Made by a program: the position numbers and the translations under genes. Below, piece after piece: positions 1 to 10,865 of a DNA stretch of 24,000 nt. Below the pieces are notes generated by a model. The model made no database searches. It was not told the DNA's origin and saw only the letters and a program-made list of their open reading frames with translations. Origin of the DNA: Rhodothermales bacterium (GTDB lineage Bacteria; Bacteroidota; Rhodothermia; Rhodothermales; BA12); contig CAWFGU010000001.1 of NCBI GenBank assembly GCA_963815505.1, forward strand, positions 12,111-36,110. The letters run 5' to 3'. Numbering within the stretch: position 1 is the first letter of the stretch; each line of letters opens with the position of its first letter.

Positions 1-106
1 CTGGCGCGCAAAACACGCCGATGTGTGAGCGGGCCAATGTAGACGCCATCGTCGACCCAACGCAAAAGCGCTCGGCCTTTGCGTCGCCCGCAGCCAAGGG
101 TTATGC
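1..106 (-). repeat. integron attC site, truncated by the window edge
   Basis: Carries the conserved arm ctggcgcgcaaaacacgcc...gcctttgcgtcgcccgcagccaagg and ends in GTTATGC at 100-106. It is collinear with the 10 other copies; the left core lies off-window. Confidence 0.8.
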
Positions 107-159
107 GGCCGCAAAAAAAAGCCCCTCTAACACTTTTTTATCGCGCTAGGGTGCTTGAG

Positions 160-253
160 TGGCGGTAGGGGACTCGAACCCCTACGAGCCGAAGGCTCAA
201 CTCGGATTTTCTCCAATGAGCCGCGTTCTTTACCAATTCCCGCCAACCGGGGA
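160..253 (-). ncRNA. tRNA-like sequence (type II, Leu/Ser-like), non-canonical; possible pseudo-tRNA or tRNA-like ncRNA inside a cassette
   Basis: Minus strand reads CCCCGGT-TGGCGGGAATTGGTAAAGAACGCGG-CTCATTGGAGAAAATCCGAG-TTGAGCCTTCGGCTCG-TAGGGGTTCGAGTCCCCT-ACCGCCA. The T arm is perfect (AGGGG TTCGAGT CCCCT). There is a long variable arm (GAGCC TTC GGCTC) and a D arm resembling bacterial tRNA-Leu (TGGCGGAATTGGTAGACGCG). Only 4 of 7 acceptor pairs form, and no canonical 5-bp/7-nt anticodon arm can be drawn. Confidence 0.4.
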
Positions 254-369
254 TGAATCCCTGAGCACATCTTTAGAATGCGATCAGGGACAAACAAACC
301 GAGGCATTGCCTCCACACCGACCCTTTTCAGTGCATAAAGTTTTTCCCAGAAAACTGTCGTTCAAGCCC

Positions 370-492
370 GCATAACAGACAAGGCTCTGGCGCGCAAAAC
401 ACGCCGACGGGTGAAGACAGCAATGTAGACGCCGACGCTGAAACAACGCAAAAACGCTCGGCCTTTGCGTCGCCCGCAGCCCGGGGTTATGC
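370..492 (-). repeat. integron attC site
   Basis: GCATAAC at 370-376 and GTTATGC at 486-492. The conserved arms acaaggctctggcgcgcaaa and gcctttgcgtcgcccgcagcc are imperfect inverted repeats. Confidence 0.85.
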
Positions 493-639
493 GCTCAGAT
501 TTGGAAATATCTAAGCCGAAAATCCTGCCACGCGAAGATACACTAATTTCTAGCGCTATTCCATAAATCCAAACTGACAGTCACTTTTTCGTGGTCGTCT
601 CTCACATTTCTTACCTTCCGCTGGTTTTCATGGCTAAAC

Positions 640-894
640 CTATACGGATAGGGAAATAGGCCTGATTTTTGTATTGTCCATATCTAAACAATCCCAAATT
701 TCTCGCGTCATCAGTTTAGATGAATACTCTGCCTCTCTTATATTGTCGTCCATCACCTCTATTTTGTTCTCTATGTCAATAAGGGTTGCTTTTGCCGACA
801 TCAGATCACTGCGTAAAGCAGCTTGCTGATTCCACTGAAAAATCGACCAGCCCAGTAAGGTCAAAGCAACAAATAGCCAGATTGGATGGCGCAT
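640..894 (-). CDS. small membrane-anchored hypothetical protein (84 aa), integron cassette
   Basis: The ATG (complement of 892-894) lies inside the core site GTTATGC; the stop is TAG at 640-642. MRHPIWLFVALTLLGWSIF is a hydrophobic N-terminus followed by a charged helical tail. The cassette is visibly AT-richer than its flanks. The ORF-track start at 918 is a TTG inside the attC. Confidence 0.65.
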   Translation of the reverse strand: MRHPIWLFVALTLLGWSIFQWNQQAALRSDLMSAKATLIDIENKIEVMDDNIREAEYSSKLMTREIWDCLDMDNTKIRPISLSV

Positions 895-1012
895 AACAGA
901 CAAGGCTCTGGCGCGCAAAGAGCGCCGACGGTGAGCCGATTAATGTAGTCGCCATCGTCGACCCAACGCAAAAACGCTCGGCCTTTGCGTCGCCCGCAGC
1001 CAAGGGTTATGC
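891..1012 (-). repeat. integron attC site
   Basis: GCATAAC at 891-897 and GTTATGC at 1006-1012, with the same conserved arms as the other copies. Confidence 0.85.
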
Positions 1013-1037
1013 GCACACTGCGTCAGACAACCCGGCT

Positions 1038-1412
1038 TTATTCGGAGCGTGGTGTCACGCTGAGATTTCTACCATCGCGCGCAATACTAGCCGAGAGCGT
1101 ATTCGCGCGCTCAGCCGAAAGCGTGCCGCGCTTGACTTTGACGTTGAGACGCGACGTATTCAACGCAACAACCGAACCTTGAAACTGCAATTCGCTGACC
1201 GTGAACATAGCAGGCGTGGTCATACGTTCAGACGAGAAAGCAAAGCCGTTCTCCGAAGCTACTGAGACTGAAAACGGAACGGCACCTTCGTCGGAAGTGA
1301 CTTCGATGACTGCTGCCTCTGGTTCGGATTGATCTACGTCGCGAAGTGACGAGCAACCTGTGAGAACAACTGAGCAGAGCAGAATAGCTGGGAGGAAACG
1401 AAGCGTTTTCAT
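1038..1412 (-). CDS. putative lipoprotein (124 aa), integron cassette
   Basis: ATG at 1412 gives MKTLRFLPAILLCSVVLTGCSS, a signal peptide with lipobox LTGC. Stop is TAA at 1038-1040. The ORF-track start at 1436 is a TTG. Confidence 0.75.
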   Translation of the reverse strand: MKTLRFLPAILLCSVVLTGCSSLRDVDQSEPEAAVIEVTSDEGAVPFSVSVASENGFAFSSERMTTPAMFTVSELQFQGSVVALNTSRLNVKVKRGTLSAERANTLSASIARDGRNLSVTPRSE

Positions 1413-1454
1413 ATGGGTCTCAGAAATCGAGGACAAGTACGCCGTTCAAAGTGC

Positions 1455-1576
1455 GCATAACAGACAAGGCCTCTGGCGCGCAAAACACGCCGGTGATTGA
1501 ACGTGCTCATGATAGCACCGACGACCGAGCGGGCACAACCGCCCGCCTTTGCGTCGCCCGCAGCCAAGGGTTATGC
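1455..1576 (-). repeat. integron attC site (central-region subtype II)
   Basis: GCATAAC at 1455-1461 and GTTATGC at 1570-1576. The central part, gaacgtgctcatgatagcacc, differs from most copies and matches only the left half of the 5576-5792 site. Confidence 0.85.
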
Positions 1577-2008
1577 GGCGGAGGGGGGCCGAGTGGCAAA
1601 AGGCTGCGCCGGAGTTACGTCGTGATATGTGCGGACTAACCATTCGGCGTACTCCTGCGAGCGACCTTCTAGCACCCACGGTCTGCCCCGCCCGATCTCG
1701 CGTCGAGCGCGCCCAACGATTGCGGGATTGCATTCCTGTTTCAGTCGCCAATTTGCAAAGTGTTTGGCAGCGGTACGCATGACGACCAGCCTCCCCGAAC
1801 CGCGATGTCTTCCAAGCACTCCCACCGGGGTGCGCGCACCCATAAATCCGTGAGTCCACAGGACGTAAACTTTGCTTCCGGGCTTGAAATGCTTCGTGCC
1901 ACGACGCGGGATGTGCTCCTCACCATGCAGGCGTTCCCAAACGACGTTGGCAACTGCGAACCACATACAGCCCGAGTCCTCCGTTTCCACGCTGAGGTTA
2001 AGCCGCAT
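1571..2008 (-). CDS. hypothetical protein (145 aa), integron cassette
   Basis: Runs from the ATG inside core GTTATGC (2006-2008) to the TAA inside core GCATAAC (1571-1573). The composition is diverse (MRLNLSVETEDSGCMWFAVANVVWERLHGEEHIPRRGTKHFKPGSKVYVLW...) with mixed third-codon positions. No family recognised. Confidence 0.55.
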   Translation of the reverse strand: MRLNLSVETEDSGCMWFAVANVVWERLHGEEHIPRRGTKHFKPGSKVYVLWTHGFMGARTPVGVLGRHRGSGRLVVMRTAAKHFANWRLKQECNPAIVGRARREIGRGRPWVLEGRSQEYAEWLVRTYHDVTPAQPFATRPPSAA

Positions 2009-2126
2009 AACAGACAAGGCTCTGGCGCGCAAAACACGCCGACTGGTGAGCGGGCAATGTCAGACGCCGATGCCGCGACAGAGCAAAATGCTTGGCCTTT
2101 GCGTCGCCCGCTGCCGTGGGTTCTGC
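2005..2126 (-). repeat. integron attC site with variant core
   Basis: GCATAAC at 2005-2011. The right core is the variant GTTCTGC (2120-2126), the exact inverse of GCAGAAC at 2401-2407. Confidence 0.8.
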
Positions 2127-2400
2127 CGCTGCCCGCCACGAGCACCGAACCAGAGCAAGCCGCGCCGAAAGCTGACGGCCACCGCGCGCCTAGCCGACCG
2201 AGATTCGCGAACGAAGCCACTGAGACGCCGGACTTGTCGAAGTCGCCGCCTGCCGACCGACACCGGAGACGCCGCGCCGCCGCGCCGCCGAAGCTGACGA
2301 GGCCCGCGAGCCAACTGCCACCGGAGACGCCGACACTTGACCGGAGCGGTCACAACAAACAGCGCCGCCACGAACACCGCAGATCAGGCCCACGAGAGCG
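2127..2400 (-). other. ORF-poor cassette body, paralog 1 of 3 (C/A-rich on the plus strand)
   Basis: Shares blocks with 4768-5032: cgaacaccgaaccagagcaa, gccgaccgaga.tc.cgaacgaagc and ccggagacgccgac.c.tgaccggagcggtcacaacaa.cagcgccg. It is open in several frames on both strands. Confidence 0.5.
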
Positions 2401-2450
2401 GCAGAACAGTTCGCGGCTCTGCGGCCCACCTACTCACATTACACAAAGAC
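2401..2450 (-). repeat. degenerate partial attC (relic)
   Basis: gcagaacagttcgcggctctgcggcc parallels the left end gcataacagacaaggctctggcgcgc. No matching right arm or core follows. Confidence 0.45.
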
Positions 2451-2451
2451 G

Positions 2452-2754
2452 ATGAACGACACGATGACTACCGACTCTGAAAATGCTCCTGTGGTGGGTC
2501 CGCCGCAGCCGGAGGTTATGCCGCCGCCGGATTTCCTCAACTTCTGCTGCTACTCGTGCGATGTTGATACGGGGCGCGTAGACAGGCAGGACGTGTGGTC
2601 TTGCGAGAGGTGCGGCGCTCCCCTCTGCGCAGAGCATTTCACGGAGTCCAACTGTGCAGCCTGCCGTGATTTAACGGATGGCGAGTTGGCCGGTACGTCG
2701 TGCTCAGAATGCGGATCAGACGAGGACTCTTGCGTCTGCTTCGCTGAGGAGTGA
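2452..2754 (+). CDS. Cys-rich zinc-ribbon-like protein (100 aa), inverted relative to the other cassette ORFs
   Basis: ATG at 2452, TGA at 2752-2754. Four CxxC motifs (CYSC, CERC, CAAC, CSEC) plus CVC, and an acidic C-terminus. Confidence 0.6.
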   Translation: MNDTMTTDSENAPVVGPPQPEVMPPPDFLNFCCYSCDVDTGRVDRQDVWSCERCGAPLCAEHFTESNCAACRDLTDGELAGTSCSECGSDEDSCVCFAEE

Positions 2755-2758
2755 GGCG

Positions 2759-2876
2759 GCATAACATACAAGGCTCTGGCGCGCAGAGCACTGGTGGTTG
2801 GGCGAGCAATGTAGACGCCGACGCCGATCAACGCAAAGCTGCCCGCCTCTGCGTCGCCCGCTGCCCTGGGTTATGT
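2759..2876 (-). repeat. integron attC site
   Basis: GCATAAC at 2759-2765. The right core is the variant GTTATGT (2870-2876), the inverse of ACATAAC at 3956-3962. Confidence 0.85.
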
Positions 2877-2882
2877 GCATTT

Positions 2883-3911
2883 CTAGCGGGTGGGGTTATA
2901 AATATACCTACCATCTTTATTTATGTATCCAATCCTGCCGTCAACCCTGACCTGAGCTAACCCTTCAATAAACGGACCTGCGGCAGAAAACTGTGGCTCA
3001 ATGACTATTTCACCCTGCCTATCAATGTACCCAAACACTCTTCCTACTTTAACAGCTGCTAACCCCTCGTAAAATTCGCTAGCGGATTCAAATTCGCTCG
3101 TTGGAGAGATTACAAACGAGCCTTGAATATTAATATATCCAATGCGAACGGATTCCCCATGACCATCACGAACTCCCACCGCAGCTAAACCATCAGAAAA
3201 GCTGTTAGCAGTATCAAACCCACTTAACACCACGCGACCTGACCTGTCAACGAATACTGCCGTATCAACCACCTGTGGACCCCCAAGGAATGAAGGCAGT
3301 CCCCATCGCACAAAAGCATTAGCTCTCGCTAGGCCATCAGAGTAAACGCCGACACCAGAAAGTGGAGGTGACGGTCTAATACCAGAAATCCCATCAAACA
3401 CAAATTTTTTTTCACTTACCTGTGCAATCAAATTGTCAACAATTTGGTTCAGATTGACAACTATTTCGCCCGATTGATCTATGAAGGAATTATTTCCAAT
3501 TCCAGCTAAACCCTCACTAAACGAAGACGCTGACCCGAGTATAGGATTTATAACGTAAGAACCTGATTTGTCTATAAAGCCCCAGCTGGATCCGATCCTG
3601 ACAGCAGCTAGGCCTTCCGAAAAGTCTCGAACGTCATCAAACTGCGCTACTATCGCGGTGTCACCCTTAGTATCCAAAAAACCCCGACCTTGATCTCCTC
3701 GGAAAGCACCTCTCCCCTCGCTAAATGTACGAGCAAGGTCAAACCTCGGAGTTATTACCACCTGTCCTTCCACGTTTATATATCCATAAGATCCACTCTG
3801 TTGTATTACATATAACATTCCGAGTTCGACCTTTTCATCCTCCTCGCCAGCGCTATCGCATCCTGCGCAAAAAGCCAGAAGCGTAAGAATCAAAAGGATC
3901 GAACGAGACAT
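2883..3911 (-). CDS. WG-repeat (KWG-type) lipoprotein (342 aa), integron cassette
   Basis: ATG at 3911 gives MSRSILLILTLLAFCAGC, a lipoprotein-type signal. About ten repeats of the pattern W/YGFID..G..VI.P.F....F.EGLA.V follow. Stop is TAG at 2883-2885. The cassette is clearly AT-richer than the backbone. Confidence 0.85.
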   Translation of the reverse strand: MSRSILLILTLLAFCAGCDSAGEEDEKVELGMLYVIQQSGSYGYINVEGQVVITPRFDLARTFSEGRGAFRGDQGRGFLDTKGDTAIVAQFDDVRDFSEGLAAVRIGSSWGFIDKSGSYVINPILGSASSFSEGLAGIGNNSFIDQSGEIVVNLNQIVDNLIAQVSEKKFVFDGISGIRPSPPLSGVGVYSDGLARANAFVRWGLPSFLGGPQVVDTAVFVDRSGRVVLSGFDTANSFSDGLAAVGVRDGHGESVRIGYINIQGSFVISPTSEFESASEFYEGLAAVKVGRVFGYIDRQGEIVIEPQFSAAGPFIEGLAQVRVDGRIGYINKDGRYIYNPTR

Positions 3912-3955
3912 AAGGGCGAATATTTTTAGTGACGGATCAGCTTGGACTCCGAAGC

Positions 3956-4077
3956 ACATAACAGACAAGGCTCTGGCGCGCAAATGCGCCGACGTGTGAG
4001 CGAGCTAATGTAGACACCACCGCCGAGACAGCGCAAAAACGCCCGGCCTTTGCGTCGCCCGCAGCCAAGGGTTATAC
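3956..4077 (-). repeat. integron attC site
   Basis: ACATAAC at 3956-3962 and GTTATAC at 4071-4077, the latter being the inverse of GTATAAC at 4649-4655. Conserved arms are present. Confidence 0.85.
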
Positions 4078-4088
4078 GGCTTAAGGTT

Positions 4089-4379
4089 CTACCCTAATGC
4101 TCCAAACTGACGCGAAGAATGGTAGATCGTCAGCACTTCAACGCGCTCCTCACTCACCACATAGATGATTCGATACTGCCGGTAGATCACTTCGCGAATG
4201 TCATTGTCTCCAATCTCTGGTACCGCGCGACCGACGTTGGGGAAATCCGACAATCGCCGCGTAGCATCAAACGCTCCGGCCACGAAGAGCGGCGCGAAGT
4301 CAGGCGCTACGTTCTCGTAGTATGCCTCAATCGCTTCGAGATCGCGCAGCGCTTGCGGACGCCAGATAACCTCAGCCAC
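4089..4379 (-). CDS. parE: ParE/RelE-family toxin (96 aa)
   Basis: GTG start at 4379 overlaps the upstream ORF stop by 8 nt. MAEVIWRPQALRDLEAIEAYY...REVIYRQYRIIYVVSEERVEVLTIYHSSR is the typical ParE-type plasmid-stabilisation pattern. Confidence 0.8.
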   Translation of the reverse strand: MAEVIWRPQALRDLEAIEAYYENVAPDFAPLFVAGAFDATRRLSDFPNVGRAVPEIGDNDIREVIYRQYRIIYVVSEERVEVLTIYHSSRQFGALG

Positions 4380-4578
4380 AATTCCAAGAGCGCTCGTGCT
4401 TCGGTTTACTAAACTCGGCCTCTGCTGTGGACTGAGCTACACCTTGACCATTCTGCATCAGGCCAATGTTGACCTTGCGGAGCAGAATCAAGCGATCAAT
4501 CACGTCGTCGAGTGACACCTCATTCGGCAGCGACTGTACGACACGCACAATTTCATCTCTGGACTGGAGAGCAGGCAT
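4372..4578 (-). CDS. putative antitoxin (68 aa from ATG 4578; alternative GTG start at 4620)
   Basis: Small ORF immediately upstream of the ParE-like gene and overlapping it (tgt ggc TGA against GTG GCT GAG). No family assigned. Confidence 0.6.
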   Translation of the reverse strand: MPALQSRDEIVRVVQSLPNEVSLDDVIDRLILLRKVNIGLMQNGQGVAQSTAEAEFSKPKHERSWNCG

Positions 4579-4648
4579 GGCAACGAAGGTAGAGCGGGCG
4601 AAAGTAACGCCAGATGACACGTGCGGTTCGCCTGGGAAGTCTGGAGCC

Positions 4649-4767
4649 GTATAACAGACAAGGCTCTGGCGCGCAAAGCCGGGAAGTGTGAGCGAGCAAT
4701 GTAGACGCCCACGCCGCGACAGCGCAAAACCGCCCGCCTTTGCGTCGCCCGCAGCCAGGGGTTATGC
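4649..4767 (-). repeat. integron attC site
   Basis: GTATAAC at 4649-4655 and GTTATGC at 4761-4767, with conserved arms. Confidence 0.85.
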
Positions 4768-5032
4768 CGCACTGCCCGGACGAACACCGAACCAGAGCAA
4801 ACCCAACCGCACGCCGACGACGCCACCGCAAACTGCCGACCGAGACTCACGAACGAAGCTGACAAGACGCCGACCGTGCCGAAGTCGCTGCTCGAACGAA
4901 GCCACCGCAGGCACCGCGCCGCCGAAGCCGACCAAGTCTGCGAGCCGACCGGCACCGAGACGCCGACGCCTGACCGGAGCGGTCACAACAACCAGCGCCG
5001 AAACGAGCCGCACCGGTGAAGCCCAGGCAGCG
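4768..5032 (-). other. ORF-poor cassette body, paralog 2 of 3
   Basis: Homologous blocks with 2127-2400. A minus-strand frame is open from a GTG to the TAA of the core (VRLVSALVVVTAPVRRRRLG...GLLWFGVRPGSAA), but it is Arg/Gly-rich and not convincing. Confidence 0.5.
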
Positions 5033-5152
5033 GCATAACAGACAAGGCTCTGGCGCGCAATCACGCCGACGGTGAGCCGATTAATGTAGACGCCGACGCC
5101 GATCAGCGCAAAAACGCTCGGCCTTTGCGTCGCCCGCAGCCAAGGGTTATGC
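5033..5152 (-). repeat. integron attC site
   Basis: GCATAAC at 5033-5039 and GTTATGC at 5146-5152, with conserved arms. Confidence 0.85.
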
Positions 5153-5569
5153 GGCGTCACGAGCAATGATTTCTTCGATAGCTGACCGAGTATATTTCTC
5201 AGCCGGATCTACTCCTGGGTCGTCAGTACTTCGTAGGTACTCGCCGCTATCGAAGGCTGAGTAAACGTCCATGGTATACCGAGGTACGTCTAATGTGCCA
5301 TCGGCGTCAACTTCCAGCGACATGGCGATTCCCCACAAGTAGTTGGCTATGTCATCGGCGATCCAGTAGGGCAGTTTTTTACCAGCATATTCGTGTGCTA
5401 TGTGCCGCGATACCTGATCGAGAAGGTCTTGCTCCGAAAGCTTCTCTCTTTCGCGGATCGCCTCGAAGTCGCTATGGAATTGGTTTTCAATCAGATCAGA
5501 GTGCCCCTTCGGAATGCTCTCCGCAGCGCTTCGGTAATCTTCGACCAGTAACTTCACGCTCTCGGTCAT
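5147..5569 (-). CDS. hypothetical acidic protein (140 aa), integron cassette
   Basis: ATG at 5569 (MTESVKLLVEDYRSAAESIPKGHSDLIENQFHSDFEAIREREK...). The TAA stop at 5147-5149 lies inside the core GCATAAC. Composition is balanced and protein-like. No family recognised. Confidence 0.75.
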   Translation of the reverse strand: MTESVKLLVEDYRSAAESIPKGHSDLIENQFHSDFEAIREREKLSEQDLLDQVSRHIAHEYAGKKLPYWIADDIANYLWGIAMSLEVDADGTLDVPRYTMDVYSAFDSGEYLRSTDDPGVDPAEKYTRSAIEEIIARDAA

Positions 5570-5575
5570 AAGCCG

Positions 5576-5792
5576 GCATAACAGACAAGGCTCTGGCGCG
5601 CAGAGCGGTGAAGGGTGAACGTGCTCAGGATAGCACCACCGCCCGAGCGAAGCAAGCCGCTGGCCTCTGCGTCGCCCGCAGACAAGGCTCTGGCGCGCAA
5701 ACACGCCGACGGTGAGCGAGCAATGTAGTCGCCGACGCCGAGACAGCGCAAAAACGCTCGGCCTTTGCGTCGCCCGCAGCCAGGGGTTATGC
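5576..5792 (-). repeat. double-length hybrid attC (two attC sites fused)
   Basis: GCATAAC at 5576-5582 and a subtype II centre run up to ...gcgtcgcccgcag (5681). The sequence then continues directly with acaaggctctggcgcgcaaacacgcc, the start of a subtype I attC, ending in GTTATGC at 5786-5792. One inner R'/R'' core pair is missing. Confidence 0.75.
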
Positions 5793-6010
5793 CGCCGACG
5801 ATTGCACGAACGCGCTGAACGCCCAAGTCGAAAGCCAACGCGCCGCACCCGGCCCGACTCCGAACAGCGCCTCAGTCAAGACGCACCCGCCGAAGCCGCG
5901 AAACGAACAGCGCCACCGGAAACACCGACCGAGCCAACCGCCACGGAAGCGACCACAAACACCAATGCCGAGCCGCCACGAACCGCGCGCTTCCCGGCTA
6001 CCGACAGGCG
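5793..6010 (-). other. ORF-poor cassette body, compositionally related paralog 3 of 3
   Basis: Same C/A-rich plus-strand composition as the other two. A minus-strand frame is open exactly from the core ATG (6012-6014) to the core TAA (5787-5789), giving a 75-aa W/R/G/F-rich product of doubtful reality. Confidence 0.4.
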
Positions 6011-6130
6011 GCATAACAGACAAGGCTCTGGCGCGCAAATGCGCGGGAGTGTGAGCGGGCAATGTAGTCGCCGAGCGCCGATCAGCGCAAAAACGCCCGC
6101 CTTTGCGTCGCCCGCAGCCAAGGGTTATGC
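6011..6130 (-). repeat. integron attC site
   Basis: GCATAAC at 6011-6017 and GTTATGC at 6124-6130, with conserved arms. Confidence 0.85.
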
Positions 6131-6558
6131 CGCTGTGCTTCGAGCTTCAACTACTGAACCGAGACCGTGGCACCTGTCGCAGACGCTGTTCGCTGCTCCG
6201 TCGACGCGGTACAAGTCGAACAGGCAGTGACTCGCGCCGAGCGTCGGCGGTTGAGTAGGTCAAGTCTCCGGTACTCCGCGTCGAAGCTGCTCACCTGCTC
6301 CGCAAGAGGCTCCGTTCACCAGAGGCAACGATCAAGAGTCAGTGCCATCTGGGGCGGTGTCGTTGGCAAGCACGCTGATCACAACTGATTGACCGCGAGC
6401 AACTTGGGCACTGATCAATCGTTGACGGCGTAAGCCGCTGTCAAGTATGGATATCGTCGTTCGAGTCGCAGGCTGTGAGCGGCAGAACGATTAGTCAGCC
6501 AGAGCAGCGAGACTACTACAGCGCATGATCTGATTCGGCGAAGCCTGCCGACGAAGCG

Positions 6559-6724
6559 GCATAACCAGTAATTGTGAGGACGGCAGACTGTTATTCCGGC
6601 CCGCCGTCCGGGTAACGGAGAGCAGGATACGACGCAACTCCGGCAAAGACAACGGCTAGACCCCGCCCGGCGAGAACGCATACCGGACGCCGTCCGGATA
6701 AACAGTTTTCCACAGGGGTTATGC
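6559..6724 (-). promoter_or_regulatory. candidate attI region (crossover core GTTATGC on the minus strand at 6559-6565), probably with the divergent intI and cassette promoters
   Basis: This is the last core site before intI. It lacks the conserved attC arms. An inverted core, GTTATGC at 6718-6724, overlaps the intI ATG. There is an internal imperfect inverted repeat, ctgttattccgg (6588-6599) with ccggataaacag (6694-6705). Confidence 0.45.
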
Positions 6725-7761
6725 CAGACGATCTAGCGTGTCTAAAAGGGCAACTCGCCTCCTTTTCCGTGCCCGACGACGCCCCACGCCCCCGCCTGCT
6801 GCACGCCCTCACCAGCGCCTGCCGACGCCGAGGATACAGCCTACACACCGAGCGCGCCTACGCCCTCTGGACCCGCCGCCTCGTCCACTTCCACCAGCGC
6901 CGAGTGGGACGCGCCGTCCACCCACTCGACATGGACGAGGCCGACGTATCCGCTTTCCTGTCGCACCTCGCCGTCGAACGCAACGTCGCCGCGGCCACCC
7001 AGCGGCAGGCACTCTGCGCGCTCGTCTTCCTGTTCACCCACGTGCTCCATCGCCCCCTCGCCGTACTCGACGTGACGCGCGCCAGACGACCCCGACGCCT
7101 GCCCGCCGTCCTCTCGGTCGCCGATACGGGACGCCTCCTCGCCGCACTCACCCACCCGACCGCCGATCTCATCGCCCGCCTGCTCTACGGGTCCGGCCTG
7201 CGTCTGAGCGAGGCGCTGCGCCTGCGCGTCAAAGACCTCGACTTCGACCGGCTCTCCCTCACCGTTCGCGACGGAAAGGGCGCCAAGGACCGCCTCACCG
7301 TCCTGCCGCGGCCACTCGTCGAGCCACTACGCAAGCAGATCGACCGCGCACTCGAACGCCACCGACGCGACCGGACCGACGGCATCGCGGGCGTCTACCT
7401 GCCCCACGCCCTCGCCCGCAAATACCCGTCGGCCCCACTCGAAGCAGCGTGGCAGTGGGTCTTTCCCTCGCCCACCCTCTCCGTCGACCCGCGCGCCCAC
7501 GTCACGCGCCGACACCACGTCTCCGACACGCTCGTCCAGAAGGCCGTCAAGCGCGCCGCCGCCGGATGCGGACTCCGTCTCCGCGTCACGCCGCACACCC
7601 TGCGCCACTGCTTTGCGACGCACCTGCTCGAATCGGGGACCGACATCCGCACGGTTCAGAGCCTGCTCGGGCACGCCTCCATCAAGACGACGCAGATCTA
7701 CCTCCACGTCACCCAGAGCGCCGTCGCCGCCGTCAGCCCACTCGAACGCCTCGCAGCCTGA
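6721..7761 (+). CDS. intI: integron integrase IntI (tyrosine recombinase, 346 aa)
   Basis: Collinear with remembered IntI1: YSLHTERAYALWTRRLVHFH, LLYGSGLRLSEALRLRVKDLDF, DGKGAKDR, HTLRHCFATHLL and LLGHASIKTTQIYLHV, so the R, K, HxxR, H and Y catalytic residues are present. It also has the IntI-specific insertion YLPHALARKYPSAPLEAAWQWVFPSPTLSVDPRAHVTRRHH (about nt 7390-7518). Confidence 0.95.
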   Translation: MPDDLACLKGQLASFSVPDDAPRPRLLHALTSACRRRGYSLHTERAYALWTRRLVHFHQRRVGRAVHPLDMDEADVSAFLSHLAVERNVAAATQRQALCALVFLFTHVLHRPLAVLDVTRARRPRRLPAVLSVADTGRLLAALTHPTADLIARLLYGSGLRLSEALRLRVKDLDFDRLSLTVRDGKGAKDRLTVLPRPLVEPLRKQIDRALERHRRDRTDGIAGVYLPHALARKYPSAPLEAAWQWVFPSPTLSVDPRAHVTRRHHVSDTLVQKAVKRAAAGCGLRLRVTPHTLRHCFATHLLESGTDIRTVQSLLGHASIKTTQIYLHVTQSAVAAVSPLERLAA

Positions 7762-8012
7762 CCCATCCGCGCCCCGAACCGATCCGTCCGCTCCCTCTCG
7801 CAGTCCGTCCGCACATCGACCCGACTCATCCGCACACCCGCGCCCCCCATCCGCGCCCCGCCCTCGCCCATCTGTCCCCTTTCCATGCCCGTCCGCTCTT
7901 CTTTGCCACCCATCCGCGCACCCGACTTACCCATCCGCACCCCGAACCGGCCCATCCGCCCCTCCGAGCCATTCGTCCGCTCCCCGGAATGACCCGTCCG
8001 CTTATACCATTT
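7761..8012 (+). repeat. 12 tandem units of exactly 21 bp, with conserved 10-mer RCCCRTCCGC and variable 11-nt spacers
   Basis: TCCGC, or the variant TCTGT at 7871, starts at 7766, 7787, 7808, 7829, 7850, 7871, 7892, 7913, 7934, 7955, 7976 and 7997. The spacing is a constant 21 bp. The array fills the gap between the intI stop and the next gene. Confidence 0.9.
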
Positions 8013-8030
8013 CTTCACACACCAACTCCT

Positions 8031-8681
8031 ATGTCCTTCGCCTCCCTCCCGCTCGCCGACCTGATCCGTGACGCCCGCACACTCTACACCGGCGCCCGAG
8101 ACACCCCCGATGCCGCCGCTCTGCTCGCCGATTACTACACCGTCCCCGACGACTTCGACGCCGGGCTGACCCTCGTCGCCGACGTCGTCGCCCTAGATGC
8201 CACTCAGAAAGTCGAATACGCCGACCAGTTCGCCGCCACGTCCGAAGCCCAACGCCTGACCGAAGAGGTCAAGAGCCGCTATTCCGCCCACCGGCGCATC
8301 TCCCGCCGTGCCCACGCGCGCGACTCGGAAGGCCACCGCGCCCTCGCCCTCTCGGGCGACACACCCAACGGACGCGCCGACCTCCTGCGCCGAGCCGGGA
8401 CCTTCTGGCAGACCATCGTCGACCGCCCCGACCTCGTCTCAGGCGTACGCGGCCTCGACGCCGCCCGCGCCCAAGACGCCCTCGCCCTACTCGAAACCGC
8501 CCGCACCGCCGACGACGCCCAGACCCAGGAAACCGGCCAGGCCCAACGCGCCACCGACGCCCGAGACACCCAGGTGGCCCAGCTACGCCGCGACGCCGGA
8601 GAACTCGCCGAAATCGCCCACATCGCCCTGTCGGACCGCCCCCAACTCCTCGAAACCCTCGGCCTGATGGACCGCCGCTGA
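8031..8681 (+). CDS. hypothetical protein (216 aa), predicted mostly helical, Ala/Asp/Arg-rich
   Basis: ATG at 8031 (alternative ATG at 7989), TGA at 8679-8681. This is the real 3' part of the artefactual 6738..8681 ORF. No family recognised. Confidence 0.7.
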   Translation: MSFASLPLADLIRDARTLYTGARDTPDAAALLADYYTVPDDFDAGLTLVADVVALDATQKVEYADQFAATSEAQRLTEEVKSRYSAHRRISRRAHARDSEGHRALALSGDTPNGRADLLRRAGTFWQTIVDRPDLVSGVRGLDAARAQDALALLETARTADDAQTQETGQAQRATDARDTQVAQLRRDAGELAEIAHIALSDRPQLLETLGLMDRR

Positions 8682-8695
8682 TGCTGACAGCGAGA

Positions 8696-8738
8696 CCCCT
8701 CCGCCGCTGGCGCGCCACCTCCCCTTGAAAAGGGGAGG
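8696..8738. repeat. palindromic element A, copy 1
   Basis: cccctccgccgctggcgcgccacctccccttgaaaaggggagg contains the hairpin CCTCCCC-ttgaaaa-GGGGAGG. It is repeated essentially identically at 9325-9367. Confidence 0.85.
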
Positions 8739-8753
8739 ACAGTCCGCCCGCCT

Positions 8754-8868
8754 CGACCCGAAGCACCCGTCACTCCCGACCCGAAGCGCCCGTCACTCCC
8801 GACCCGAAGCGCCCGTCACTCCCGACCCGAAGCACCCGTCCCTCCCGACCCGAAGCACCCGTCCCCTC
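8754..8868. repeat. 23-bp tandem repeat x5 (cgacccgaagcRcccgtcMctcc)
   Basis: Units start at 8754, 8777, 8800, 8823 and 8846. They sit between element A copy 1 and element B copy 1. The second A-B copy has a single related 58-bp spacer instead. Confidence 0.9.
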
Positions 8869-8932
8869 CTTAGACAAGGAGGGGTGCCCGTCAGGGCGGG
8901 GTGGTCCGAGCGGCACCCTCCCAAACCACCCG
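8863..8932. repeat. structured element B, copy 1
   Basis: CCCCTCCTT-agac-AAGGAGGGG hairpin, then GCCC-gtca-GGGC, then ggtggtccgagcGGCACCCTCCcaaaccaccc. Repeated at 9426-9494 with a few substitutions. Confidence 0.85.
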
Positions 8933-8940
8933 CCCCCACC

Positions 8941-9303
8941 ATGGGACGTATCCACAACCGCTCTGCCTACACGCCGCGCCGCAAAGAACTGCGCACGCAC
9001 GGCACACACGCAGAAGCCGTACTGTGGCTCGCGCTGCGCAAGAGCGGCCTGCGGGGGCGCAAGTTTCGCCGACAGCACGGCATCGGTCCGTTCATAGTCG
9101 ACTTTTACTGCCCGGCGGAACGCCTCATTCTCGAACTCGACGGGAGCGTCCACGACGACCCACTGCGGGCTGCCTACGACCGAGACCGGCAGCGCGCGAT
9201 CGAAACGCTCGGGCTACGGGTGCTCCGCATTCCCAACAGAGCTGTGCTGAACCGACGCGCCGACGTGCTGGACTGGATTGCCCAACACTTCGCGAGCGGA
9301 TAG
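8941..9303 (+). CDS. DUF559 endonuclease-domain protein (Vsr-like fold, 120 aa)
   Basis: MGRIHNRSAYTPRRKELRTHGTHAEAVLWLALRKSGLRGRKFRRQHGIGPFIVDFYCPAERLILELDGSVHD...LGLRVLRIPN is the characteristic DUF559 pattern. The ORF-track start at 8725 extends into the repeats. Confidence 0.85.
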   Translation: MGRIHNRSAYTPRRKELRTHGTHAEAVLWLALRKSGLRGRKFRRQHGIGPFIVDFYCPAERLILELDGSVHDDPLRAAYDRDRQRAIETLGLRVLRIPNRAVLNRRADVLDWIAQHFASG

Positions 9304-9324
9304 CCTCAGCGTAGGACAGCGCCC

Positions 9325-9367
9325 CCCCTCCGCCGCTGGCGCGCCACCTCCCCTTGAAAAGGGGAGG
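9325..9367. repeat. palindromic element A, copy 2
   Basis: Same 43-bp sequence as 8696-8738. Confidence 0.85.
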
Positions 9368-9425
9368 GCAGGATAGCCTCGACACACCCTTCACCGGTAA
9401 CCCTCAACCCAGCGACAGCGCCCTT

Positions 9426-9494
9426 CCCCTCCTTGGACAAGGAGGGGTGCCCGTCAGGGCGAGGTGGTCCGAGCGGCACCCTCCCAAACCACCC
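9426..9494. repeat. structured element B, copy 2
   Basis: cccctccttggacaaggaggggtgcccgtcagggcgaggtggtccgagcggcaccctcccaaaccaccc. It lies between the convergent DUF559 and pilQ genes and may act as a terminator. Confidence 0.85.
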
Positions 9495-9509
9495 CCAAAC
9501 GCCACCTTC

Positions 9510-10865
9510 TCACCGATCCCGCATCTCCACCCCCAGATCCACCCGAGCAGGCTCCCCGGCCCTACGCAGCGCTTCCTCGACCGCGCGGCGGCGCTCGTCG
9601 TAGAGTTGACCGTCCCGCTTCGGCAAGCGGGCGCGGTCGGGCAGCGTGTCCAGCACGTCGGCCTGGAGCACGATCACGAGCTCGCGCTCCTCCTCCAAAC
9701 TCACCTCGTAGCCGAACACGTAGCGCAAACCGAAGAACCAGCCGGGCAGGTCCTTGAGAACGGGGATGCCACGGCGCTCGTACGAGGTCTGCGTCGACGA
9801 CAGCCCGGCGATGATCGTCTGCTCGCCGTCGAGCAGGACGATCTTGGTGTCCGAACGGGTGCGGTCGACGATGGGGATCGCACCCGACGACACGCGCCCG
9901 CTCGACCGCTCCACGCCCACGTCGAGGTGGATGAACTCGAGATCCTGCTCCTCGCCGCCCGCCCCGATGCGTTCGGTGAACAGCGTCGGCGTCACGTCCA
10001 CGATGATGCCGGTCTGCAAGAACTGCGTGACGGTGTTGCCCGCGAAGTCGCGCGTTTGATAGGGAAAGTCCGTGCCGATCTGGATGCGGCCCGCCTCGCC
10101 GCTCTGCACGCTTACCTGCGGGCTGGCGAGCGTCCGCCCCATACCTTCGCGCTCGTAGTAGCGGATCAGGCTGGTCAGCGTCGCCGTCGAGATGTCGGCG
10201 GGCAGGCTGACGACGCCGCCGATGCTGATGCGCCCGTCCACTCCTCGGTCCAGCCCCGTCGCACCGCTCAGGTCGACGTTGACGCCGGTTCCGGTCGAGA
10301 TGTCGTCGGCAGCCAGCAGCACGTCCCAGTTGACGCCTTTGTCGCGCGCCTCACTGGCGTTGATCTCGAACAGGATCGCGTTGATCTGAATCTCACGCGT
10401 GGCCGTCGTCACGTTGGGCACGTTGCCGCCGCCGCCCTGCGTCGACGGGCGGATGAGCCCGGCAGGACCGTCCTGCACGCGCCCCGCCGAGATCGACGCC
10501 CCCGCGACGGCAGCCGCCCCGTCGACGTTGGACCCGCCGAGTACGAAATAGCGCTCGTTCTCGCGGAACGTCAGCCCATTGGCGCGCAGCACCAGGTTGA
10601 ACGCGTCCATGAAGTGCATCCCCGAAATGGTGACGCCGATGGGCAGGTCGCTGCCTTCGGGATCGATCACGATCTTTCCGGTCTCGCGCTCGAACATCGG
10701 CTCGAGCATCGCCAGAAAGCGGCTCATCGGCACGTCCGACTGGAACGACACCAAGTCCTCGGGCGGCACGTACGTGCGCATCACGCGCTCCGAAGGTTGC
10801 GTCTGGGCGTCCGCAAAGCGCGCAAATGCGCAGGCGAGCAGAAGGAGCAGGAAGAAGCGGGACAT
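9510..10865 (-). CDS. pilQ: secretin, PilQ/GspD family (451 aa from ATG 10865)
   Basis: Signal peptide MSRFFLLLLLACAFARFADAQ. C-terminal secretin pattern: LASPQVSVQSGEAGRIQIG...IPIVDRTRSDTKIVLLDGEQTIIAGL...RGIPVLKDLPGWFFGLRYVFG...ELVIVLQADV. Confidence 0.85.
   Translation of the reverse strand: MSRFFLLLLLACAFARFADAQTQPSERVMRTYVPPEDLVSFQSDVPMSRFLAMLEPMFERETGKIVIDPEGSDLPIGVTISGMHFMDAFNLVLRANGLTFRENERYFVLGGSNVDGAAAVAGASISAGRVQDGPAGLIRPSTQGGGGNVPNVTTATREIQINAILFEINASEARDKGVNWDVLLAADDISTGTGVNVDLSGATGLDRGVDGRISIGGVVSLPADISTATLTSLIRYYEREGMGRTLASPQVSVQSGEAGRIQIGTDFPYQTRDFAGNTVTQFLQTGIIVDVTPTLFTERIGAGGEEQDLEFIHLDVGVERSSGRVSSGAIPIVDRTRSDTKIVLLDGEQTIIAGLSSTQTSYERRGIPVLKDLPGWFFGLRYVFGYEVSLEEERELVIVLQADVLDTLPDRARLPKRDGQLYDERRRAVEEALRRAGEPARVDLGVEMRDR

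Follow-up and report, generated by a model that had tools for sequence, protein, structure and literature searches.

A phased 21-bp repeat array coupled to PQLLE-family genes

It was found that an array of phased 21-bp repeats lies directly upstream of a gene of the PQLLE protein family, and that nearly every relative of this gene, in at least eight bacterial phyla, has its own 21-base repeat array. The array is real and non-coding and has been selected for its core sequence and its exact phase; it belongs to the PQLLE gene, to which it is physically coupled across phyla. The module is chromosomal and is widespread in the FCB-group phyla and in Chloroflexota. Table 1 lists the features of the locus in the window, that is, the whole 24-kb stretch of DNA that was analysed.

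Table 1. Features of the array locus in the window
Feature	Position	Strand	Remarks
intI, integron integrase gene	6721..7761	+	TIGR02249, 393.6 bits (cutoff 265); context, outside the module
21-bp array	7762..8013	+	12 units in exact 21-bp phase, each a 9-nt core (YYCRTCCGC) and a 12-nt near-random spacer
Junction stretch, last unit to start codon	8014..8030	+	
PQLLE-family gene, 216 aa	8031..8681	+	NCBIfam NF052641, 122.2 bits (cutoff 80)

Anatomy of the array in the window

The initial annotation had described twelve phased 21-bp units with largely non-conserved spacers, and both points hold. The core is present in 11 exact copies and one degenerate copy, with starts at 7762 + 21n (exact cores on the plus strand at 7762, 7783, 7804, 7825, 7846, 7888, 7909, 7930, 7951, 7972, and 7993), while the sixth unit, at 7867, has the degenerate core CCCATCTGT. 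All 11 core intervals are 21 bp. The identity between units is 82% in core columns 1-9 and 39% in the 12-nt spacers, compared with a composition expectation of 32%. The 10-mer RCCCRTCCGC named earlier as the recurring element was roughly right: the conserved core is nine nucleotides long, and the base preceding it is R in 10 of the 12 units. YYCRTCCGC occurs 17 times in the entire window, whereas 5.15 +/- 2.0 occurrences are expected from shuffled sequence, and none of 100 shuffles has as many as 17. The remaining six matches are scattered on the minus strand, and the core is at chance level outside the array. The orientation of the array is that of the arrays of Rhodothermales relatives, and CCGAA remnants are found in the spacers. 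A 23-bp tandem repeat further downstream (8754-8863) has no significant similarity to the 21-bp unit.

The spacers of the window array are randomised, yet no indel has been fixed in them. Since the spacers have diverged, Tandem Repeats Finder (TRF) at default stringency detects a mere 2.2-copy fragment. In homologous arrays, the core-to-core distance is exactly 21 bp in 425 of 455 cases, 42 bp in 11 cases, and 20 bp in one case, and it is never 22 bp. Thus, randomised spacers without indels, together with this constant spacing, indicate selection on the core and on its phase. The earlier view that the array looks like candidate same-face sites and not like a slippage satellite is therefore upheld, as neutral slippage would not keep the core and the exact phase while the spacers randomise.

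Coupling of the array and the gene among relatives

I examined the periodicity of PQLLE loci of about 8.6 kb at lags of 5 to 60. In 70 of the 80 loci on genome contigs, the upstream periodicity peaks at a lag of 21 or 42 (in rare cases 20 or 41) and lies within about 700 nt of the gene start; for 69 loci, no stronger periodicity exists anywhere in the locus. Six further loci have the array directly 3′ of the PQLLE gene; three of the four remaining loci end at a contig edge. All eight separately retrieved loci have an array, that of L005, the closest PQLLE relative, being weak and degenerate. The paralog L006 has no array. Cultivable bacteria with the module include Kaistella chaponensis DSM 23145, Kaistella haifensis DSM 19056, Ekhidna lutea DSM 19307, and Marinoscillum furvescens DSM 4134. 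Upstream of PQLLE genes, TRF gave rows of period 21 (72 rows), 42 (32 rows), and 63 (18 rows), while periods of 12-18 dominate elsewhere in the loci. It had been proposed that the 8031-8681 product is the partner of the array, and this co-occurrence supports the proposal strongly.

PQLLE is the only gene family common to all loci. The neighbours are diverse housekeeping genes, and no conserved neighbour gene, regulator gene, or defence-island context was found among the PQLLE loci. DNA methyltransferases are in excess among the neighbours, which is unexplained. A metagenome scan for three phased CCRTCCGC cores gave at least 120 stretches, none of which is beside a PQLLE gene; most are near-perfect repeats within long ORFs. 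Therefore, the core sequence of the window is no marker of the system elsewhere.

Conserved period and divergent cores

In arrays with decayed spacers, 96 of 101 core distances are 21 bp. Across lineages an array has 7 to 17 copies, and in many of them the core is about one helical turn long. L048 has GGAAC every 10-11 bp, and several unit types have small dyads inside the unit, GGAA-N4-6-TTCC or GATATATC. L001 and L002, compared at strain level for copy number, are identical in sequence.

The period is conserved across phyla, whereas the core sequence is lineage-specific. The similarity between motifs is 0.93 where the proteins are at least 80% identical and 0.63 at 60-80% identity, and it is at the baseline of 0.5 below 45%. 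The head region of the protein follows motif divergence marginally better (rho 0.31) than the protein overall (rho 0.29). Simple linkage would also make motif and protein diverge together. Different cores are found in paralogous modules of the same genome (L007/L009, L012/L021, L078/L083, L074/L085, and L207/L209), which argues against a single shared host factor. In Chryseobacterium and Kaistella, the proximal array and the promoter region are 88-95% identical, while the third positions of the CDS are 68-70% and the 3′ intergenic region is 35-38% identical. These identities point to purifying selection on the orthologous units in the two genera.

The neighbouring integron integrase gene

The first base of the array is the base after the stop codon TGA (7759-7761) of intI, and the initial annotation had framed the array around this gene, a framing that has to be given up. 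Among about 86 related loci, intI is beside the PQLLE gene only in the window and in L005. The array-intI adjacency is an incidental, lineage-specific accident; the array marks the true integron boundary in this genome and is not to be read as part of the integron platform. An array of accessory or arm-type integrase sites, or an array that is part of attI, would explain why it begins right after the intI stop codon and why L005 shares the order intI-array-PQLLE. However, the attC-like cassette repeats (52-6138), and hence attI, are on the opposite (5′) side of intI from the array, which is 3′ of intI, and no GTTRRRY or RYYYAAC site was found in 7741-8031, array included. Moreover, about 85 other PQLLE loci have arrays without intI, and the L005 core, GCGYTCC, differs from that of the window despite a 51% identical IntI. 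Such integrase sites are thus a very remote prospect.

Non-coding nature of the array

A unit of 21 nt equals seven codons, and it was once thought that all three plus frames of the window array are open. In fact, two plus frames and one minus frame are free of stop codons, and the frame from 7762 has a TGA in unit 11. The array as such had nevertheless been taken as non-coding, and this agrees with the homologous loci: at least 13 arrays have stop codons in all six frames, and in 10 of the 13 GC-rich relatives, L005 among them, an in-frame stop separates the array from the start of the gene. The conserved block of the window array has no third-position wobble. A minus-strand ORF of 106 aa (7698-8018) overlaps the array and has no match to an NCBIfam family. 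In a few database proteins, P0026 and P0031, the array is read as an N-terminal extension, whereas most PQLLE homologs begin with the same conserved M-x-F N-terminus. The long database forms were considered as genuine N-terminal extensions and rejected; they are read-through calls. It is scarcely credible, then, that the array is translated into heptads, be it as an extension of PQLLE or as the minus-strand ORF, or that it is a neutral satellite. Gene callers sometimes translate the array as a bogus proline- or arginine-rich N-terminal extension.

Orientation and transcription signals

The gap between the end of the array and the ATG at 8031 is 18-30 nt. Because of this short distance, a promoter inside the array is plausible in the window. 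The junction stretch plus the last spacer reads TTATACCATTTCTTCACACACCAACTCCT, in which TTATACCA (8002-8009) resembles TTTTTTACCCA, the sequence found after the final unit of L207 and L208; from this resemblance, TTATACCA is possibly a -10-like element. A scan of 6000-9600 for the sigma-70 consensus gave no match, and no clear Shine-Dalgarno sequence precedes the ATG. Around 29 AT-rich loci, the Bacteroidota promoter TAnnTTTG has no exact plus-strand match.

Of 56 upstream arrays, 47 have more A than T on the sense strand of the gene; inverted downstream arrays show the opposite skew. L026, L064, L083, and L085 have the array 3′ of the gene in inverted orientation, and L060 and L075 have inverted sub-arrays. 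The array reaches the start codon in L209 and L044, and those of L032 and L041 also abut or overlap it. The A>T bias and the arrays at or over the start codon, or as near to it as that of the window, are equally compatible with a function of the transcript. In Chryseobacterium, a terminal inverted unit adjoins an AT-rich promoter-like region, which lies between the array and the gene, and the terminator of the upstream gene directly adjoins the first unit, so that a promoter would not fit there. Four of 56 loci have a terminator-like hairpin with a T-run between array and gene, although the scan is crude for these phyla. The arrays have no general RNA structure (mean folding z -0.36 sense and -1.0 antisense), and Rfam at the gathering threshold found nothing over the arrays of the window and 17 loci.

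The PQLLE protein

The match of the window protein to NF052641 spans profile positions 6-210 of 211 and places it in the family. The PQLLE family has 2591 cluster representatives (50% identity) at E<=1e-3, and almost all of the best 150 of these 2591 are about 215 aa in length. AF2 predicts (pLDDT 96.1) an elongated bundle made up of helices only, the long ones spanning residues 40-94 and 144-199. Two conserved motifs, QxxEYGEQxxAT and QxxExGEAQRAT, are duplicated versions of each other. The protein is acidic, with a mean net charge of about -5.5; a slight positive charge (+1.6) is confined to the tip region, residues 95-143. Conservation is highest at Glu, Gln, Tyr, and Thr residues of the long helices, a pattern that, on the predicted model, is more in keeping with a ligand-binding or interaction site than with a DNA reader.

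No match to the protein was found in Pfam, PADLOC, PHROGs, or PDB sequences, and no DNA-binding domain is recognisable, with no RHH, HTH, or Rep match. Fold searches of the model with Foldseek against the PDB and BFVD gave no match (best E 0.13 and 0.24). A tblastn search of two PQLLE members against 72,556 plasmids and 50,697 phages gave no match, and neither did a scan of IMG/VR. A literature search on PQLLE, 21-bp repeats, and iteron-like arrays returned nothing relevant, and the pairing of gene and repeats was not found described.

Possible function of the array

The array may well be a set of candidate same-face sites on double-stranded DNA for the adjacent PQLLE protein, operator-like or iteron-like, a reading that is tentative and comes from sequence comparison. 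It would be the cis-acting half of a self-contained two-part module, the 21-bp phased repeats and the PQLLE gene. Each core of about 9-12 bp would be a sequence-specific protein site, and with a site at every two helical turns, 7-17 binder molecules would sit along the same face of the helix. Most likely the neighbouring PQLLE gene itself encodes this binder, which could form a cooperative nucleoprotein array over or beside its own promoter, as an autoregulatory operator or an iteron-like complex. I infer in this sense that the element acts as double-stranded DNA, that PQLLE binds it, and that PQLLE expression is controlled as a result. Counting against this model are the acidic character of PQLLE, which has no DNA-binding domain or structural neighbour, and the array-less paralog L006. 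It is more doubtful, though possible, that PQLLE is a new nucleic-acid binder that forms a filament of one subunit or dimer per 21 bp, as part of an undescribed self-specifying chromosomal module. If so, an acidic elongated helical bundle would bind nucleic acid without a known DNA- or RNA-binding fold, and its recognition specificity would co-evolve rapidly, like incompatibility groups. The candidate cellular roles would be a switch, an insulator, a nucleoid anchor, or a defence-related sensor.

The main rival is that the array acts as RNA, either as the 5′ leader of the PQLLE mRNA or as a separate repeat RNA that binds or controls PQLLE. In that case the locus would look like a type III toxin-antitoxin system, in which tandem repeats immediately precede one protein gene, and the modules are likewise stand-alone and multicopy per genome, with a family-specific repeat length and a cognate-specific sequence. 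The array and the gene are co-oriented in most loci, as the strand bias and its reversal in inverted downstream arrays indicate. Where the array adjoins the start codon or extends over it, as in the four loci named above and in the window, part of it must be transcribed or contain the promoter, and the mostly unstructured sense strand would suit a single-strand-binding partner. On the other hand, no consistent RNA structure is found, an intrinsic terminator before the gene is limited to the 4 of 56 loci, and PQLLE is acidic, belongs to no PADLOC family, and is unlike ToxN, CptN, or TenpN. The Chryseobacterium loci, with a terminator abutting the first unit and a promoter-like AT-rich block between the array and the gene, also speak against RNA, as do the inverted downstream arrays and inverted sub-arrays. 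In addition, an RNA processed unit by unit would not need a strict 21.0-nt phase with free spacers. Taken together, a function as RNA is rather unlikely.

It is improbable, to a greater degree, that the cores are sites of one or more unlinked host transcription factors, for example of the AraC/XylS or hybrid two-component system (HTCS) type, with PQLLE as a heavily regulated target. Direct repeats of 21 bp from centre to centre match the footprint of an AraC-type protein with two HTHs, and PQLLE has no DNA-binding signature. However, the paralogous modules of one genome differ in core, core turnover parallels the adjacent protein, no regulator gene is conserved nearby, and the core is at chance level elsewhere in the window; it is also hard to explain why different regulators in eight phyla would have 7-17 sites at a single gene family. 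There may instead be no specific binder, the array being curved or anisotropically flexible DNA whose in-phase bends tune the PQLLE promoter. The conserved period with a free sequence would fit, and the only feature common to arrays across phyla is an A-tract, (G)AAA(T), that occurs once in each unit of 21 bp. Yet A-tracts are absent from the window array, which has kept a GC-rich 9-mer amid randomised spacers instead; the Chryseobacterium and Kaistella units are conserved far above synonymous sites, and some arrays are 3′ of the gene. Bent DNA without a binder is thus highly improbable.

Whichever molecule is involved, the coupling to the array is the first functional handle on the large PQLLE family of about 2,600 clusters, which lacks a Pfam entry, a structure, and any literature. 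If PQLLE does bind the array, this could point to a new nucleic-acid-binding fold or to a new system of repeat RNA and protein. A conserved helical period with a free sequence is also a natural data set for the evolution of cognate specificity.

Comparison with known systems

Two kinds of element suggested by the locus itself differ from the array. It is unlike integron attI and attC sites, being 3′ of intI and having no GTTRRRY core sites, and it is unlike a heptad-repeat coding sequence, since no open frame is conserved in the homologous loci.

The type III toxin-antitoxin systems (ToxIN, CptIN, and TenpIN) have repeats of 34-45 nt, a pseudoknot RNA, and an endoribonuclease toxin of the ToxN fold. 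Like them, the PQLLE module has co-oriented tandem repeats directly upstream of a single gene, with exceptions; it is free-standing, is found several times per genome, and combines a family-typical repeat length with a cognate-specific sequence. In contrast, its repeats are 21 nt long, have no pseudoknot-like structure, and are usually not followed by a terminator before the gene. The predicted helical bundle of PQLLE does not appear to be a ToxN, CptN, or TenpN fold, and there are arrays that are inverted or lie 3′ of the gene.

The operators of AraC/XylS regulators and of Bacteroides HTCS proteins have 2-4 direct-repeat copies bound by a regulator with two HTHs. They resemble the array in having direct repeats with a 21-bp (two-turn) period upstream of a gene, whereas PQLLE arrays have 7-17 copies, no linked regulator, and cores that differ between paralogs of the same genome. 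KfrA of IncP plasmids is an alpha-helical coiled-coil DNA-binding autoregulator with a single operator. By description, it recalls PQLLE as an all-helical elongated protein encoded beside its own (for PQLLE, putative) operator, but a single operator differs from a long phased array.

In partition centromeres, F sopC consists of 12 repeats of 43 bp bound by SopB and R1 parC of 10 repeats of 11 bp bound by ParR, and the cooperative nucleoprotein complex doubles as an autoregulatory operator. A dozen phased repeats adjoining the gene of the binder, putative in the case of PQLLE, are common to both. Unlike these systems, there is no ParA-, ParM-, or TubZ-type NTPase near PQLLE, the protein does not resemble RHH- or HTH-type ParB proteins, and the module is chromosomal, with no plasmid match for the two members tested.

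The iterons of P1, R6K, pSC101, RK2, and pPS10 are direct repeats of 17-22 bp, in 5-9 or more copies, beside a Rep gene. Each lineage has its own iteron sequence, sometimes with an inverted partial repeat at the promoter for autorepression, and iterons are found on either side of the gene (P1 incC and incA). PQLLE differs from these systems in that the protein is not of the winged-helix Rep_3, RepA, pi, or TrfA type and the copy number is higher, at 7-17. The PQLLE module is also chromosomal among housekeeping genes, with no evident DnaA boxes or origin context, and the two members tested have no plasmid or phage match. On the other hand, the module has direct repeats in the size range of iterons, phased at about two helical turns beside a gene; its repeats are the lineage's own, an inverted unit is sometimes found at the promoter, and the arrays occur on either side of the gene.

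The phased array and its surroundings in the window

It was found that the array between intI and the PQLLE gene keeps a perfect 21-bp register. The core YYCRTCCGC starts at positions 7762, 7783, 7804, 7825, 7846, 7888, 7909, 7930, 7951, 7972, and 7993, and the sole gap in this series, at phase position 7867, holds a degenerate CCCATCTGT. Thus, the twelve perfectly phased units of the initial annotation were recovered as 11 exact cores and one degenerate core. In the whole window, YYCRTCCGC occurs 17 times versus 5.15 ± 2.0 in shuffled sequences, and the 6 matches outside the array are dispersed and lie on the opposite strand. Identity between units is 82% in the 9-nt core and, in the 12-nt spacer, 39% versus 32% expected from base composition; thus, the spacers are essentially randomized. 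No indel disturbs the phase. Tandem Repeats Finder (TRF) detects just a 2.2-copy fragment because the spacers have diverged. The array begins at the first base past the intI stop codon and ends 18–30 nt before the next ATG. Two plus frames and one minus frame are free of stops across it; the initial annotation had all three plus frames open, but the third contains a TGA. After the last unit comes a short conserved element (TTATACCA at 8002–8009 of the window; GGCATTTTTTACCCA at 2917–2937 of both L207 and L208, two related GC-rich loci), a possible −10 region in the promoter of Rhodothermales-type PQLLE genes.

Coordinates of features in the window and of methyltransferase or restriction-modification (RM) neighbors in related loci
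Feature	Sequence	Position	Strand	Basis or remark
attC-like cassette array, chromosomal integron	window	52–6138		imperfect inverted repeat of ~100 nt, in at least 12 copies
intI, bona fide integron integrase	window	6721–7761		TIGR02249, 393.6 bits (cutoff 265)
21-bp array, 12 units	window	7762–8013	+	YYCRTCCGC pattern search
PQLLE gene, 216 aa	window	8031–8681	+	NCBIfam NF052641 "PQLLE family protein", 122 bits (cutoff 80)
Hairpin-bearing repeat pair	window	8686–8742/9315–9371		flanks DUF559 gene
Near-perfect tandem repeat, 23 bp × 4.8	window	8754–8863		directly 3′ of PQLLE stop codon
Hairpin-bearing repeat pair	window	8854–8931/9417–9494		flanks DUF559 gene
DUF559 gene (Vsr-like endonuclease fold)	window	~8970–9303		between the two repeat pairs
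Methyltransferase/RM gene	L003	3273–5828		
Methyltransferase/RM gene	L208	235–2631		
Methyltransferase/RM gene	L022	1816–3090		
Methyltransferase/RM gene	L083	5036–6319		
Methyltransferase/RM gene	L085	5066–5875		
Methyltransferase/RM gene	L069	1835–2830		

The cassette repeats have CATAAC...GTTATG ends and are spaced by 340–1200 bp; GC content across them is lower and patchy (0.44–0.65). Since the cassettes lie upstream of intI, attI must lie around 6140–6720, and the 21-bp array is past the other end of intI. An attI or attC identity was rejected for the array, which is on the wrong side of intI and has no GTTRRRY or RYYYAAC site. The 23-bp repeat and the 21-bp unit look somewhat alike (CCCGAA...CCCRTC), but not significantly so (45 of 500 shuffles). 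Past the DUF559 gene, there is a secretin operon on the opposite strand. DUF559 neighbors recur in L040 and L053, two other PQLLE loci. The plus strand is C-rich over intI, the array, and the PQLLE gene (GC skew −0.26 to −0.38 over 7000–9000), and the cumulative skew reaches its minimum near 10–10.5 kb.

The array accompanies the PQLLE gene

Is the array a companion of intI? In the first three homologous loci, intI is absent, yet about 10–12 units of 21 bp lie immediately 5′ of the PQLLE gene. Cores entirely unlike that of the window were found, namely GYGCRAGCCCCAGA in L001, CCAAACGACACYCCGA in L003, and AAAAnnGnCGACCGYCGCC in L004. With each GTDB species represented by one genome, a scan gave 80 loci, the majority from metagenome-assembled genomes (MAGs). 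They belong to Rhodothermales, Cytophagales, Flavobacteriales, Bacteroidales, Chitinophagales, and Ignavibacteria, and also to Calditrichaceae, KSB1, Marinimicrobia, Cloacimonadota, Fibrobacteraceae, Chloroflexota (Ardenticatenaceae and Anaerolineales), and a few others; the closest relatives of the window protein are from Rhodothermales and Bacteroidota MAGs. I performed an autocorrelation scan (168-nt windows, lags 5–60) over each ~8.6-kb locus. The top upstream periodicity was at lag 21 or 42 (rarely 20 or 41) in 70 of the 80 loci, within about 700 nt of the gene start, and was the strongest of the whole locus in 69 of those 70. In six further loci, the array lies immediately downstream of the gene; the one in L060 precedes a second tandem PQLLE gene copy. 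Of the other four loci, three are truncated at a contig end, and only L006 truly lacks an array. TRF rows upstream of the gene have periods of 21 (72 rows), 42 (32), and 63 (18), while periods of 12–18 prevail elsewhere in the loci. The array is also present in all four GC-rich loci L206–L209 (z 8–11). L005, the closest relative (56% identity), is the sole other locus with intI ahead, and its array is degenerate (period ~20.6 bp, core GCGYTCC). The neighbors include tRNA synthetases, SelA, Clp protease, and metabolic enzymes, and no gene other than PQLLE was found to be common to the loci. These results firmly establish the array as a conserved companion of the PQLLE gene, the partner tentatively named in the initial annotation. 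The tie to intI drawn there has to be given up, as the cassettes lie on the opposite side of intI and other loci keep the array without it.

The 216-aa window protein has no Pfam domain. An AlphaFold2 model from a 46-sequence alignment is confident (pLDDT 96.1, pTM 0.83) and predicts an elongated, all-helical bundle made up of two helices of ~55 residues (40–94 and 144–199), short helices at the N-terminus, and a small tip, also helical (residues 95–143). Foldseek gave no significant match (best E 0.13 in PDB and 0.24 in BFVD), nor did profile searches of PDB sequences, PADLOC, and PHROGs. At E ≤ 1e-3, the family comprises 2591 cluster representatives, of which the best 150 are nearly all single-domain proteins of ~215 aa. 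The highest conservation is in two similar motifs, one on each long helix (QxxEYG(D/E)QxxAT and QxxExGEAQxATxxRD), a pattern that points to a duplication within the protein and to a polar functional site. Neither tblastn searches of plasmids and phages with two family members nor an IMG/VR scan yielded a match. NCBIfam gives the family a name and states no function.

Anatomy and specificity of the arrays

Among 455 consecutive core distances, 425 are exactly 21 bp, 11 are 42 bp, one is 20 bp, and none is 22 bp, although this regularity is somewhat inflated by circularity because the arrays were found via the 21-bp signal. In arrays with decayed spacers, 96 of 101 distances are 21 bp. Phase slips within arrays are very rare. 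A unit consists of a conserved core of ~8–12 bp and a free spacer. Some arrays have a 42-bp super-period of alternating units, L048 has GGAAC once per 10–11 bp, and several unit types contain small dyads (GGAA-N4-6-TTCC or GATATATC). The cores are lineage-specific; in an iterative PWM alignment, all that the arrays had in common was one A-tract, (G)AAA(T), in each unit. The A-tract is on the sense strand of the gene in upstream arrays (A>T in 47 of 56) and on the opposite strand in the downstream arrays of L026, L064, L083, and L085, which are thus inverted. The L083 array (4700–4900) lies after the terminator of the gene and before a C5 methyltransferase gene. In both L060 (4685–5050), with its tandem genes, and L075 (2910–3510), the unit of the direct array recurs behind it as an inverted sub-array, with four copies at 42-bp spacing in L060 and three copies in L075.

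Motif similarity follows protein identity: it is 0.93 at ≥80% identity, 0.63 at 60–80%, and at a baseline of ~0.5 below 45%. Module pairs in the same genome usually have different cores (L007/L009, L012/L021, L078/L083, L074/L085, and L207/L209), and those of L072/L076, whose proteins are 88% identical, are related. Across four species of Kaistella and Chryseobacterium, identity is 88–95% in the proximal array and a promoter-like block, compared with 68–70% for third codon positions and 35–38% for the 3′ intergenic region. The copy number varies from 7 to 9, at the distal end only. One inverted unit terminates the array beside a conserved AT-rich stretch. A metagenome contig, L134, has an 11-unit 21-bp array in the style of the window (6160–6390, minus strand; core CCAACCGTCCGC) and no detectable PQLLE homolog within 6 kb; such arrays may serve other genes, or the L134 gene may have been lost.

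Stops occur in all six frames in at least 13 arrays, and in 10 of 13 GC-rich loci an in-frame stop separates the array from the start codon. The array as a coding sequence was thus rejected, and the non-coding character assumed in the initial annotation held, with no conserved frame among homologous loci. The database proteins P0026 (325 aa) and P0031 (279 aa) carry the translated array as a proline-/arginine-rich heptad-like N-terminal extension, and the window ORFs 6738–8681 and 7698–8018 (minus) likewise include it; the PQLLE frame of the window stays open back across the entire intI. These are read-through artifacts of GC-rich, stop-poor sequence. It is firmly shown that the array is real, non-coding, and under selection for the core and the exact two-turn phase.

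How the array may act

All readings of binding, transcription, and function are drawn from sequence. The cores may well be same-face sites on double-stranded DNA, although I would stop just short of calling this probable. The product of the adjacent gene would occupy them cooperatively, and the bound array would be an operator or iteron-like autoregulatory complex. This is suggested by the period of 21.0 bp, or two turns of the helix, with 10–11 bp sub-periods in one lineage; the one-turn core with a free spacer; the dyads; the inverted terminal unit and sub-arrays; the arrays 3′ of the gene; the cognate specificity of cores within one genome; and the lack of any other linked gene. The chief weakness lies in the PQLLE protein, which bears no resemblance to DNA-binding proteins and is acidic (mean net charge about −5.5, with slight basicity in the tip only). 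It is conceivable but doubtful that the protein has a new nucleic-acid-binding fold and forms a filament on its own array.

The principal rival is a role at the transcript level, with the array serving as a repeat leader or as a type III toxin-antitoxin-like repeat RNA. Array and gene are co-oriented, and some arrays touch the start codon: those of L209 and L044 run in phase up to or across it and that of the window comes near, so that proximal units there must be transcribed or promoter-bearing. However, the arrays show no consistent RNA structure (mean z −0.36 sense, −1.0 antisense), terminators between array and gene are mostly missing, downstream arrays are inverted, and the phase is strict, which makes a role in RNA unlikely. 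The arrays are not covered by any Rfam family. In promoter and terminator scans, which are crude for these phyla, a terminator-like hairpin lay between array and gene in only 4 of 56 loci, and no exact Bacteroidota −7 motif was found on the strand of the gene. In Chryseobacterium, the terminator of the upstream gene abuts the first unit, and an AT-rich block separates array and gene. Binding of the cores by unlinked transcription factors is improbable, and pure DNA curvature more so; accessory sites for IntI are very improbable, and translation or neutral slippage is hardly credible.

Comparison with known systems

DNA methyltransferase or RM genes (HSDR_N_2+N6_Mtase, C5 MTase, and N6_N4 MTase types among them) are immediate or near neighbors of the module in ~6 of ~86 loci, far more than expected by chance. 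In L003, L208, and L022, this gene is oriented divergently, and the array lies between the two genes.

No relevant literature was found on PQLLE, 21-bp repeats, or iteron-like arrays in these phyla. The layout is similar to that of type III toxin-antitoxin loci, but a ToxN-type protein, a terminator, and RNA structure are missing. Unlike iterons, the module has no Rep-type protein or replicon context, and unlike the sopC and parC centromeres, it has no ParB/ParR-type protein or partition NTPase context. It thus fails the defining tests of each of these classes. The module is a phased repeat array paired with a neighboring gene, and by analogy it would work most like iterons with Rep or repeat centromeres with their binding proteins.
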